DNA of 64,000 nucleotides. It comes from Escherichia phage Mt1B1_P17. Shown here one piece after another: positions 7,007 to 21,770 of this stretch. The number at the start of each line of letters is the position of its first letter. Position 1 is the stretch's first letter. Both the position numbers and the translations under genes were made by a program. Location: sequence record NC_052662.1; one strand, written 5' to 3'. The notes below the pieces were generated by a model that had not been told where the DNA came from, did not search any database, and saw only the letters and a program-made list of their open reading frames with translations.

Positions 7007-7085
7007 TGGAGGCGGGAATTGGATTTGAACCAATGATCTCCAGCATATGAAACTGGCGAGGACGACCAGACTCCTCTATCCCGCT
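7007..7085 (-). tRNA. tRNA-Met (anticodon CAT; could also be Ile-lysidine or initiator)
   Basis: cloverleaf read by hand: anticodon stem CCAGT/GCTGG, loop TTCATAT, T-arm ATTGG-TTCAAAT-CCAAT, CCA encoded; position 1-72 mismatched. Confidence 0.7.
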
Positions 7086-7163: not shown

Positions 7164-7237
7164 TGGTTGTTTCGACAAGAATCGAACTTGTGTCTCACGA
7201 TTATCAGTCGTGGGTTCTACCATTGAACTACGAAACA
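7164..7237 (-). tRNA. tRNA-Ile (anticodon GAT)
   Basis: acceptor TGTTTCG/CGAAACA, D-arm GTTC..GAAC, anticodon stem CACGA/TCGTG with loop CTGATAA, T-loop TTCGATT, CCA encoded. Confidence 0.8.
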
Positions 7238-8854: not shown

Positions 8855-8929
8855 TGGTGGCCCTGGCTGGTTTCGATCCAGCTACCTATCGGTTATGAGC
8901 CGACAGCTCTCCCATTGAGCTACAGGGCC
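8855..8929 (-). tRNA. tRNA-Met (anticodon CAT; second CAT tRNA)
   Basis: perfect acceptor GGCCCTG/CAGGGCC, D-arm GCTC..GAGC, anticodon stem GTCGG/CCGAT with loop CTCATAA, T-loop ATCGAAA, CCA encoded. Confidence 0.7.
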
Positions 8930-18490: not shown

Positions 18491-19369
18491 ATGTTTGTAA
18501 AATCTTTTAAATCCGCTCTGCCTATGGTTGTTGGTGACGATGCTTCTGTAGCATCCCTTAACAGCATTACAGATATTCCTCTGGAATTTGTAACAGCAGA
18601 AGGCTCCCAGTCACACACTATCGGTCTTGTTCGTTTCGAAGATGACTCTAAATTTGTAAAAGAGTTTTCAGATCTTGAACTGCTTAATGTAGGTCAATCT
18701 GTGAAGAAGGTAGATAAAAAGAAAGTTAAACGTATTCTGAATGAACGTCTAGAAGAAATGCGTCAGGACATGGAGAGCGAAGGTAAAGAGTTTTATGTCG
18801 ATAAAGAAGTAGTCAAAGCAATGAAGGAAGATATTGAATTTGCACTATTGCCTGAAACAGAACCTGAAGATTTCTTTAACTATGTTGTCTTGGATAAAAC
18901 TACGAATCTTCTTTATGTTCTTAATGGAAGTAAAAAGGTTGCAGAAGAGATTACTTCTTTCCTCCGTTCCGTTCTGGGGACTTTCCCTTCGGTAGGTTTT
19001 AGTGTGCACGAAGAAGCTATTGTAAAAGGTTTTGGTGAATTGCTGGAGAATCACGAAGCAGATCGTATTACTCTCGGAAATTATATCAAAATGGAGGATA
19101 GCGAGGGCGTTGTTGTTTGGAGTAAAGAATCCCTATACGAGTCTAAAGCTGTCGAACTAAAAGAAGATGGTAAAGATGTTGTTGCAATCGGTCTTGAATA
19201 TGACGGTGTTGTAGATTTTGTAGTGGATAAAGAGTTTAAACTTTCTAAACTACGTTTTCCGAAATATTTTGCAGACGAAGAAGGTAGTATTGAAGCTTCG
19301 GTCCTTCTGTGCTTCAATGAGATTCGAGGTCTGATGGAAGATTTAACCAAAGCAACAATCCTTAAATAA
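18491..19369 (+). CDS. hypothetical acidic protein
   Basis: 292 aa, RBS AGGAGGA. Confidence 0.6.
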   Translation: MFVKSFKSALPMVVGDDASVASLNSITDIPLEFVTAEGSQSHTIGLVRFEDDSKFVKEFSDLELLNVGQSVKKVDKKKVKRILNERLEEMRQDMESEGKEFYVDKEVVKAMKEDIEFALLPETEPEDFFNYVVLDKTTNLLYVLNGSKKVAEEITSFLRSVLGTFPSVGFSVHEEAIVKGFGELLENHEADRITLGNYIKMEDSEGVVVWSKESLYESKAVELKEDGKDVVAIGLEYDGVVDFVVDKEFKLSKLRFPKYFADEEGSIEASVLLCFNEIRGLMEDLTKATILK

Positions 19370-19373
19370 GTTC

Positions 19374-19402
19374 TTGACTTGCGGGATTAGTTATGATATT
19401 AT
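19374..19402 (+). promoter_or_regulatory. sigma70-like promoter (TTGACT, 17 nt spacer, TATTAT)
   Basis: near-consensus boxes with exact 17-nt spacing; followed by leader hairpin GCCTACCT...AGGTAGGC plus TTTTT at 19403..19431. Confidence 0.5.
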
Positions 19403-19441
19403 GCCTACCTACTTAATGAGGTAGGCTTTTTAGGAGGCGTT

Positions 19442-19651
19442 ATGAAAAAGATTCTGACAGTCGTTCTTTTAGCTTTTAGTTTCACAGTAGCAGCAGGTCA
19501 AATTACTTTAATCTTGTCTGATTCTGAAGTTAATGGCAATACAAAATATTGCTACTATTCTAACGCTAACCAAGATGAAGTTATAGCAATCCCGAAAAGT
19601 CGTCAATGTCCGTATACTAAAACATTCTCAACAGAGGATGACGATGAATAA
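19442..19651 (+). CDS. small secreted protein
   Basis: 69 aa; signal peptide MKKILTVVLLAFSFTVAAGQ; stop TAA is in frame with the following long open frame. Confidence 0.5.
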   Translation: MKKILTVVLLAFSFTVAAGQITLILSDSEVNGNTKYCYYSNANQDEVIAIPKSRQCPYTKTFSTEDDDE

Positions 19652-20092
19652 TTAGGGGGAAATATTAGCGGTTATATTTTAATTAAACCTGAAGATCTTC
19701 ATTTATATGTCAACGAAGAAACAATAGCTGCAATTGATTATGATCAGATCGCTTTCCAAGCAGCGTCTGCGTTAGAGAAAAGAACAATCATTGCGAAGCA
19801 CATCCCTTCAGGTGCTCAAAAGGAATTTAAAAATAAGACAGAGTTTTGGGGTAAAAGCAAGACTAAAATTGGAGGTTGGCTAGGAGATACAAATGCAGAA
19901 AGAGCCTCCAAAAACAAACGTCCCTTCACAAAGGAAGAGTTCGAAATCATTGATAAGCAATACCCGCCAGAAGATATCGGACACACCTTCCAAGCAGCTA
20001 AAACAAAAGTCTTAGGTATTCTAAAACATCTACGTTTAGAAAAATATTGCGGAGTTATTGGCGTAGGAAAAACTTTCAGACACGCCTTCAAA

Positions 20093-20782
20093 ATGCCTGT
20101 AGAATATAAATCTGAACGATTAGATATCAAACCACTTCAGCTTTCAGAAACCAAAGATTATCTTGTGGAGTTCCACAATGGTGATGTTGTTACTGTAATA
20201 GAAGCTGATGATGAGTTAGAGAAGTATGGTTTCCAAGGTTATAAAGATTATAAAAGGACGGGTAAATTTTCTTATATCGTTGTATCTATAGATAAAGATA
20301 GTTTACATACTCCTAGTATCCTTTTTAATTTCTACAAAGAGGATGGAGTATTTAAAAATCCAGATATAATTCTTATTGACGAGTCTATTGGCGATATATG
20401 GATCGTAGATAAAGGTAAAAAGAAAGAAGTTAAAGGTTGGGGCAGTTACTGGTTAGCATATCAGATGCTAATGGGAGATAAAACAGATAGTATCCGACCT
20501 TATCAAGATTTTGATATTAAGTTCGGAGATATTACTTGTTTTAATCTTCTTTCAGCTTGTAAAACTCAAGCAGAACTTTTCCAAACAGTTAAAGATACTT
20601 ACTACTCGTGGTTCCCAGATGGTGTTAATTTTACTTCTTGGGATGGAGAAGAAGTCCATATGACAACAGATGAATGGATAGAAACAATTTTCCAGTTGGT
20701 ATACATGAAACGCTGGGATAATGACGATACAACATTTGAGAGTATGCTTCAGTCATACATCTCACAACAGGAGGCAGAGTGA
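20093..20782 (+). CDS. hypothetical protein (ORF stays open upstream to 19652 without ATG/GTG/TTG)
   Basis: 229 aa from first ATG; the same frame is stop-free for 147 codons upstream and is in frame with the 19442..19651 ORF. Confidence 0.5.
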   Translation: MPVEYKSERLDIKPLQLSETKDYLVEFHNGDVVTVIEADDELEKYGFQGYKDYKRTGKFSYIVVSIDKDSLHTPSILFNFYKEDGVFKNPDIILIDESIGDIWIVDKGKKKEVKGWGSYWLAYQMLMGDKTDSIRPYQDFDIKFGDITCFNLLSACKTQAELFQTVKDTYYSWFPDGVNFTSWDGEEVHMTTDEWIETIFQLVYMKRWDNDDTTFESMLQSYISQQEAE

Positions 20783-21738
20783 GCAGATTAACAGAAGAGC
20801 AGAAAGCAGATATCCTTAGTATGAGTGCAGAGGGTATGTCTTCTCGTAATATTGCAGCAATTGTTTTAGGTAGCCCAACAAGAAAAAGCACAGTAAATGA
20901 TTTCCTTGCACGTTTCAGTGGAAGTAAACAAGAACCCGTTAAAAAGAAACAACCAGTTATTAAAATTATTGATGTTGAAACTGCACCAGAGATTGCATAT
21001 ACTTTCCGTCGATTCAAAGCCTTCATTTCTCCAGACCAGGTGATTCGCAGAGGTTATTTGTTATCCTACTCTTCTGCTGACCTATATACTGGTGAAGTGG
21101 AAGGTAAGAACTTGTCTTCTTATCCTCTTTTTGATATTGATCATACAGATGATTGGGAGCTTTGCCAAGATCTTTGGAACCTTCTGAATGAGGCAGATGT
21201 AGTTGTGGCACACAACGGATATAAGTTTGACCGTGCATACATTAACCAACGATTTGCATATCACGATATGGCTCCTCCTTCTAATTATGTAGTCGTTGAT
21301 ACATTGAAGGCAGCTAAGAAACAATTTGCACTTCCTTCCAACTCCCTTAAAGAAATGGGAGCATATTTCGAAACAGAAAGTGAAAAACTGGATAACGAGG
21401 GGTTCCCTTTATGGAAAGCATGTTGTGAAGGTGATCGTGATGCTTTTGAACGTATGCAGATTTACAATGATGGCGATGTTGTTTCACTCCGTGATTTGTA
21501 TATGAAAATCCTTCCGTGGATTCCACAGCATCCTAACTTATCCGCTTATTACCCAGATGAGAAAGTCCGTTGTTCTCGTTGCGGCAGTGATCATGTTCAC
21601 GTTGTTACTGGTAAGCAATACCACACTGCGGTAAGTTCTTTCGATATCATTCGTTGTGAATCTTGTGGAGGTTTGTCACGTAGTAGAGCAAACACCAGAT
21701 CCAAAGATAAACGAGCAGCAACTATTATTGGAATCTAA
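20779..21738 (+). CDS. DnaQ-like 3'-5' exonuclease with N-terminal HTH and C-terminal zinc ribbon
   Basis: 319 aa; Exo I IDVETA, Exo II VVVAHNGYKFD, Exo III-like YNDGD; Cys pairs CSRCG/CESCG at the C-terminus. Confidence 0.5.
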   Translation: MSRLTEEQKADILSMSAEGMSSRNIAAIVLGSPTRKSTVNDFLARFSGSKQEPVKKKQPVIKIIDVETAPEIAYTFRRFKAFISPDQVIRRGYLLSYSSADLYTGEVEGKNLSSYPLFDIDHTDDWELCQDLWNLLNEADVVVAHNGYKFDRAYINQRFAYHDMAPPSNYVVVDTLKAAKKQFALPSNSLKEMGAYFETESEKLDNEGFPLWKACCEGDRDAFERMQIYNDGDVVSLRDLYMKILPWIPQHPNLSAYYPDEKVRCSRCGSDHVHVVTGKQYHTAVSSFDIIRCESCGGLSRSRANTRSKDKRAATIIGI

Positions 21739-21744
21739 TAATCA

Positions 21745-21770
21745 GGGAGCTTATTGCTCCCTTTTTTTAT
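21745..21770 (+). terminator. Rho-independent terminator
   Basis: GGGAGC-TTATT-GCTCCC followed by TTTTTTTAT. Confidence 0.7.

Follow-up and report, generated by a model that had tools for sequence, protein, structure and literature searches.

A flap-endonuclease-like gene of phAPEC8-like phages that probably starts at a conserved near-cognate ATT codon and is truncated in annotated records

In the 64-kb stretch of phage DNA analysed here, referred to as the window, a predicted flap-endonuclease-like 5'-3' exonuclease gene of 372 aa (19664..20782, + strand, stop TGA 20780-82) appears to be intact although it has no ATG, GTG or TTG start. Comparison of start regions among relatives indicates that its translation very probably begins at the near-cognate codon ATT at 19664..19666 (+). 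The 147 start-less codons in front of ATG 20093, the first canonical start of this frame, were shown to be coding and to form the true front third of the nuclease gene. Since translation most likely starts from this rare codon, gene finders and the records that we examined cut the nuclease short. The window belongs to a phAPEC8-like Phapecoctavirus (Stephanstirmvirinae), and about 60 GenBank phages match its region 19380-20800 at 99.5-99.8% identity.

The initial annotation had described 19652..20092 as a run of 147 codons without any stop and without ATG, GTG or TTG, lying in the same frame as a 69-aa ORF (19442..19651, +) with TAA 19649-19651 between them, and both its coordinates and its content were found to be right. 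The run continues uninterrupted into the 229-codon ORF at 20093..20782, giving 376 codons in all. It had also been considered unlikely to arise by chance. Given the trinucleotide frequencies of the window, the expected number of runs of 147 codons or more that lack stops as well as canonical starts is 2e-4 per 64-kb window (both strands), and 200 shuffles produced no such run; a run free of stops only is expected about once by chance in a window of this size. The argument therefore holds for the run that is free of stops and starts, but not for the lack of stops alone, and the exceptional feature is the absence of starts together with the total length of 376 codons. Among the window's open frames of at least 100 codons, only the nuclease frame has a start-free leader of more than 75 codons. 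No other near-cognate start was found in the window, other long-leader frames being low-complexity shadow sequence. ATA does occur 4 nt after AGGAGG in two other genes (33485, + strand, and 53953, - strand), with GTG or ATG directly after it; these cases, in which the ATA lies at the preferred spacing and the canonical start at 7 nt, are probably insignificant.

Searching the 376-aa translation by tblastn against 50,697 phage records returned matches spanning 91-100% of the query, namely genes of about 370 aa annotated as 'putative exodeoxyribonuclease' in the rV5-, PVP-SE1-, ICP1-, PAK_P- and other myovirus groups. The exonuclease family phrog_107 matched both halves of the protein separately, with E-values of 5e-7 for the N-terminal 143 aa and 6e-43 for the C-terminal 229 aa. 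Codon-usage scoring, one of the checks proposed initially, gave the N-terminal 143 codons a score of 0.27 in their own frame and scores of -0.27 to -1.03 in the five alternative ones, the reference values being 0.38 +/- 0.08 for the genes of the window and -0.91 for off-frame sequence. When these 143 codons were compared with those of six relatives, pN was 0.16-0.26 and pS 0.67-0.82 (saturated). Comparison of orthologous loci, also proposed, revealed no stop-rich spacer at this position: all relatives, to identities of about 30%, have an open frame here, and the arrangement is kept down to about 50% protein identity. Coding constraint begins right at the start codon, as a comparison of the window with phi92 over the first 11 codons after it shows five synonymous differences and a single non-synonymous one; the conserved protein sequence begins at codon 2 of the ATT-started frame.

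The AlphaFold2 model of the protein, built with 20 homologues, places both parts together in one compact domain (mean pLDDT 92.5). Its best matches in the PDB by Foldseek were E. coli ExoIX (3zdc/3zda) and the T5 D15 flap endonuclease (5hml), with a probability of 1.0, E-values of 5e-5 to 5e-4 and TM-scores of 0.36-0.59. Sequence searches against solved structures using the single protein and a narrow alignment (A1) gave nothing useful, and A1 aligned only weakly with T5 D15 in hhalign (E 0.061); a profile of 24 homologues (A2) aligned with it at E 2.9e-5. More specifically, this hhalign alignment pairs K149 and R152 with the arch residues K83 and R86 of T5, E180 and D182 of the E180-A-D-D183 motif with E128 and D130, D210 and D212 with D153 and D155, and D272 and D275 of the G-D272-x-x-D275 motif with D201 and D204 of the H3TH motif. 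Residues D25, E180, D182, D183, D210, D212, D272 and D275 are invariant in 24 sequences and Asp27 is nearly so. The equivalent of T5 D68 is not conserved, Val134 being aligned with it. D25 is presumably the equivalent of T5 D26, judging from its position at the end of strand 1 and not from the alignment.

No Pfam match to PF02739 was found for the nuclease at E < 0.1, and distant homologues reached 24-27 bits against a cutoff of 34.3. Because the PF02739 gathering score is not reached, the protein was filed by fold and motifs, as a predicted FEN-like, PIN-like 5' nuclease of a divergent branch. It resembles the FEN family (T5 D15, ExoIX and the 5' nuclease domain of Pol I; PF02739/PF01367) in its modelled fold and aligned catalytic residues, but it has about 80-100 more residues, carries insertions in its N-terminal third and has an additional region at the C-terminus, and the TM-scores and Pfam scores given above set it apart. 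The N-terminal 143 codons (19664..20092, +) encode Asp25 and Asp27 (IDYDQ) and most of the FEN core before the equivalent of T5 K83. In the hhalign alignment, Met144, encoded by the internal ATG at 20093..20095 (+), immediately precedes the equivalents of T5 K83 and R86, so a 229-aa product starting there would lack the first third of the FEN core, strand 1 and Asp25 included.

We then turn to the start site itself. The proposed initiation codon ATT 19664 is preceded by TTAGGGGGA and lies 4 nt after a Shine-Dalgarno (SD) sequence, AGGGGG (19654..19659, +), and 12 nt after the TAA of the small ORF. This SD was read directly in the window; most relatives have AGGAGG, and pairing of AGGGGG with the anti-SD involves one G-U pair. 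Between the TAA and the ATT there are only TTA GGG GGA AAT, four codons that all differ from ATG by more than one mismatch; since the conserved protein sequence follows right after, the start can lie only at or next to 19664. A spacing of 4 nt is short of the E. coli textbook optimum. It is nevertheless the modal one for the genes of the window and hence the normal geometry of this phage: AGGAGG or AGGGGG followed by exactly 4 nt was found at 20 of the 36 SD-led ATG starts and 5 of the 7 GTG starts, both neighbouring genes included. The internal ATG 20093 has no SD, its upstream sequence being GACACGCCTTCAAA, and Met144 is not conserved (Leu or Thr in several relatives). Folding of the RNA at 19620-19720 gave a z-score of -1.2, which is not significant, and an Rfam E-value scan of 19300-20200 returned chance-level matches only, so neither gives a hint of a special initiation mechanism.

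Start regions were compared among relatives from GenBank, IMG/VR, metagenomes and Logan, representing 36 distinct proteins. The codon at the start position is ATT in 13 of them (the window, phi92, PaulScherrer, the Klebsiella phages KP13-16 and FBKp34, and several metagenomic lineages), ATC in 10 (phiWec179 and a large metagenomic group), ATA in five metagenomic lineages and CTG in one (L015). TTG is found in three (rV5, L034 and L063) and ATG in four (PVP-SE1-like and more distant relatives). All 36 codons are thus AUG or one mismatch away from it, whichever amino acid they would encode. They lie 4-6 nt past an SD in 36/36 cases, with the near-cognate and TTG lineages confined to 4 or 5 nt. 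In L013, L025, L026 and L028 an in-frame TAA directly precedes the ATC, and in L063 an in-frame TAG directly precedes the TTG, so that translation cannot begin further upstream in these five loci. A megablast search of L013 against GenBank phages found no close relative. In a neighbour-joining tree, the window's clade comprises 29 near-cognate starts, two TTG and no ATG or GTG, and implies at least eight start-codon substitutions, none of which ended at ATG or GTG. This comparative start-codon evidence favours the suggestion, made initially, of non-canonical initiation at ATT 19664 behind a GGGGGA SD-like sequence. In a subclade of 55-57% identity (L058 ~577-603, L061 ~43-72 and L062 ~574-603), an SD-less ATG lies nine codons past the ATT or ATA and was chosen by gene callers; the nine codons in between are conserved at the protein level. 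The downstream ATG could be used instead of ATT or ATA in these three loci.

The nuclease gene lies in an operon with the small ORF and a DnaQ-like gene. A sigma-70-like promoter (TTGACT, 17 nt, TATTAT with a TG extension; 19374..19402, +) precedes this operon, as a pattern match only, scoring 10/12 in a consensus scan. It is followed by a G+C-rich hairpin and a T run (19403..19426, +) resembling a terminator for rdgC, a rho-independent terminator being annotated in ASO2A; this hairpin would end rdgC transcription and form a 5' stem-loop of the next transcript. The 69-aa ORF (phrog_4641) has AGGAGG 4 nt before its ATG and encodes an N-terminal signal peptide, its phi92 homologue being annotated with a SignalP probability of 1.000; the protein also has two conserved Cys and an acidic C-terminus. 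In most of the near-cognate clade this is the gene immediately before the nuclease; an exception is L058, where a methyltransferase gene is found. Downstream, the DnaQ-like 3'-5' exonuclease gene (20779..21738, +; PF13482 RNase_H_2, E 9.5e-10) begins at a GTG that shares bases with the nuclease stop (GTGA) and has AGGAGG 4 nt before it. A terminator-like hairpin and T run at 21744..21762 (+) marks the operon end, where ASO2A likewise has an annotated terminator.

Two other explanations had been offered initially for the start-less run, stop-codon readthrough and recent inactivation of a longer gene. Readthrough of TAA 19649-51 would fuse the 69-aa signal-peptide protein to the nuclease. As in programmed readthrough fusions, an in-frame ORF lies upstream across a single stop in the window's genome, as it does in L012, L021, L024, L027 and L029, and one public gene call, P0005 (444 aa), is a fusion of the small ORF and the nuclease. 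Unlike in such systems, however, the two ORFs do not keep the same frame relation: they are out of frame with each other in phi92, PaulScherrer, phiWec179, KP13-16 and FBKp34, two in-frame stops lie between them in L013, L025, L026, L028 and L032, and L058 has the methyltransferase gene in place of the small ORF. P0005 is a gene-calling artefact, the residue that the caller gave as Q being a TAG in the contig. Biologically, it would make no sense for a DNA nuclease to carry a Sec signal peptide, and UAAU, the stop context at this TAA, is the strongest terminator context in E. coli, which counts against readthrough. We therefore rejected the fusion, which is scarcely conceivable on this evidence, and consider the shared frame emphasised in the earlier title to be coincidental. 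If the gene were instead decaying or split, only the 229-aa product from ATG 20093 would be made and the upstream 147 codons would be a relic. This would agree with all four phAPEC8-type annotations examined, which start at ATG 20093, and with automatic callers finding no start upstream. Against it, the N-terminal 143 codons are under purifying selection with in-frame codon usage (pN and pS as given above), are open in every relative down to about 30% identity in an arrangement kept to about 50%, and hold the invariant Asp25 and core strands of what is modelled as a single FEN-like domain, while ATG 20093 is without an SD and encodes a residue replaced by Leu or Thr elsewhere. A recently inactivated gene was thus rejected as very improbable.

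Two further readings accept ATT 19664 as the start and concern how it is used and why it persists. The start could depend on termination-reinitiation from the small ORF and not on independent 30S binding, a variant of the mechanism favoured here that does not compete with it and that we find doubtful in this strict form. In most lineages of the clade the upstream stop lies about 8-20 nt before the start and abuts or overlaps the SD, and the small ORF itself has a strong SD and an ATG. However, a full SD at the spacing usual for this phage is retained in all lineages, suggesting that de novo initiation matters; in L061, a locus truncated 69 nt ahead of the called gene, the closest in-frame stop on the upstream side is at a distance of 33 nt, and in L058 the upstream gene is the methyltransferase. 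As re-initiation needs fMet-tRNA and is lowered by IF3 overexpression (PMC2268962), it would not by itself relax the choice of codon. The near-cognate start might also be without regulatory meaning, i.e. neutral or slightly deleterious and tolerated, with AT-biased mutation keeping it at ATH and with ATG dispensable because the SD is strong and little of the enzyme is required; we regard this as possible, though less likely than not. In its support, G is rare at four-fold degenerate third positions in the clade (7.4%), and 5 of 26 invariant four-fold columns (19%) are without G in 29 sequences. Because G is rare at synonymous third positions, the absence of ATG from the clade is not significant by itself (empirical p ~0.19 in a test for ATG avoidance). 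On the other hand, ATG prevails among the window's other SD-led genes in spite of this bias (36 ATG, 7 GTG), and the near-cognate state has outlasted saturated synonymous divergence and at least eight substitutions, each ending one mismatch from AUG. The opposite proposal, that the AUU/AUC/AUA/CUG start is a selected regulatory device through which nuclease synthesis reads out the cell's initiation fidelity (IF3 versus 30S), is in our view rather unlikely; if it were true, nuclease synthesis could depend on translation of the small secreted-protein ORF and be confined to a specific stage or level.

For initiation at ATT 19664, we propose that the strong SD AGGGGG at 19654-59 would position the 30S subunit and that initiator fMet-tRNA would pair with the AUU that follows after 4 nt, the third codon position being mismatched. 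Initiation would then be of the kind seen at the AUU starts of infC and pcnB, to our knowledge the only AUU starts in E. coli. Decoding of this AUU by fMet-tRNA would give the N-terminal peptide (M)SGYILIKPEDLHLYVNEETIAAIDYDQIAFQAASALEK, in which Met, or a processed Ser, replaces the encoded Ile. Ribosomes that terminate at the TAA of the small ORF, 12 nt before the AUU, would probably add some re-initiation, and coupling to this ORF is thus likely to contribute. Near-cognate starts generally reach a few per cent of AUG and IF3 rejects non-canonical starts; because they are weak and rejected in this way, the likely outcome would be low, IF3-sensitive synthesis of the nuclease, and low expression may be the purpose of the AUU start.

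The closest parallel is infC, the gene for IF3: its start is AUU or AUC throughout the bacteria, and IF3 thereby controls its own synthesis (PMC5499595). In one systematic study, AUA, AUC, AUU and CUG initiated at about 1-2% of AUG, and at higher levels in optimised contexts (PMC5499595). Only a few nt separate the infC start from the preceding gene's stop codon, and re-initiation and de novo initiation together make up infC translation; in reporters with closely spaced cistrons, the infC-type UAA GGU AUU junction included, about half of translation came from re-initiation (PMC3592434). The phage nuclease shares with infC and pcnB a near-cognate AUH start behind an SD that is kept near-cognate among relatives, as theirs is kept as AUU or AUC, and not AUG, across orthologues (PMC5499595), and it shares with infC a start a few nt after the preceding gene's stop (PMC3592434). 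By analogy, low and IF3-sensitive initiation would be expected in the phage as well. Unlike infC, the phage gene encodes a DNA nuclease and not a translation factor, so that there is no obvious autoregulatory loop, and unlike in infC and pcnB its start also varies to AUA and CUG.

Several tRNAs encoded in the window were considered in this regard. A 79-nt tRNA-Met(CAU) at 7007-7085 (-) is initiator-like, with an A1xC72 mismatch and an A11:U24 pair, both features of initiator tRNAs. It has only one, G30:C40, of the three anticodon-stem G:C pairs that are typical of bacterial initiators and are inspected by IF3. Close copies are found across Stephanstirmvirinae, with weaker matches in Erwinia, Caulobacter and other phages. 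As an extension of the reading of the start as a selected device, a link between the phage's own initiator-like tRNA-Met and the near-cognate start would be more speculative still; a specific tie was set aside, as this tRNA also occurs in phages outside the clade (Erwinia phiEa104-like, Caulobacter). A phage tRNA reading AUH at initiation was likewise discounted, tRNA-Ile(GAU) at 7164-7237 being an ordinary elongator. A second tRNA called as Met(CAT), at 8855-8929 (-), resembles an ileX-type tRNA-Ile2 (GGCCC... acceptor end, CUCAUAA anticodon loop), and would in that case presumably read AUA after lysidine modification.

The nuclease is truncated in 9/9 GenBank or RefSeq annotations examined. 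In phAPEC8, ASO2A, MirsaeidiM_Esher1 and EF1-1 the annotated start is the internal ATG 20093, and 143 of 372 residues are lost. An internal GTG was chosen in phi92 and PaulScherrer (28 residues lost), an internal TTG in phiWec179 (11 residues) and another internal TTG in KP13-16 and FBKp34 (22 residues). The phi92 record comments on this gene: "No RBS identified; weak Prodigal statistics". In RefSeq phAPEC8 a 40-aa 'hypothetical protein', YP_007348489.1 (L001 2014-2136; window 19893..20015, +), is called in another frame inside the nuclease gap and is almost certainly a spurious call filling the apparent gap. The fusion P0005 corresponds to L021 1501-2835 (Logan contig SRR30397360_28145), with the in-frame TAG translated as Gln; genes on this short contig were apparently called under a recoded genetic code, and a missing canonical start can thus mislead code inference. 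The rV5 ORF94 'putative exodeoxyribonuclease' and its PVP-SE1-type orthologues, of about 370-380 aa, are full-length and have the same SD geometry, but start with TTG in rV5 and ATG in the PVP-SE1-like phages where the phAPEC8-like gene has ATT, and were therefore found whole by gene callers. Prodigal, PHANOTATE and GeneMark consider ATG, GTG and TTG only, so the truncation will recur; about 130 GenBank phage records hold the nuclease gene at 60% protein identity or more by tblastn. Our literature searches found no report of the start codon of this gene and no proteomics or ribosome profiling of these phages.

Overall, a core replication/recombination nuclease is systematically misannotated in these phages. 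Near-cognate initiation is in itself a known phenomenon of the infC/pcnB type, to which the phage nuclease adds; what stands out is the depth of its conservation, its variation among single-mismatch codons and the systematic annotation error that accompanies it. Very few bacterial-type genes are known to have conserved AUH starts, and the nuclease gene would join them as a deep, clade-wide example from phages. It may also offer a natural system in which to ask whether a virus sets the level of a potentially harmful nuclease via initiation fidelity.
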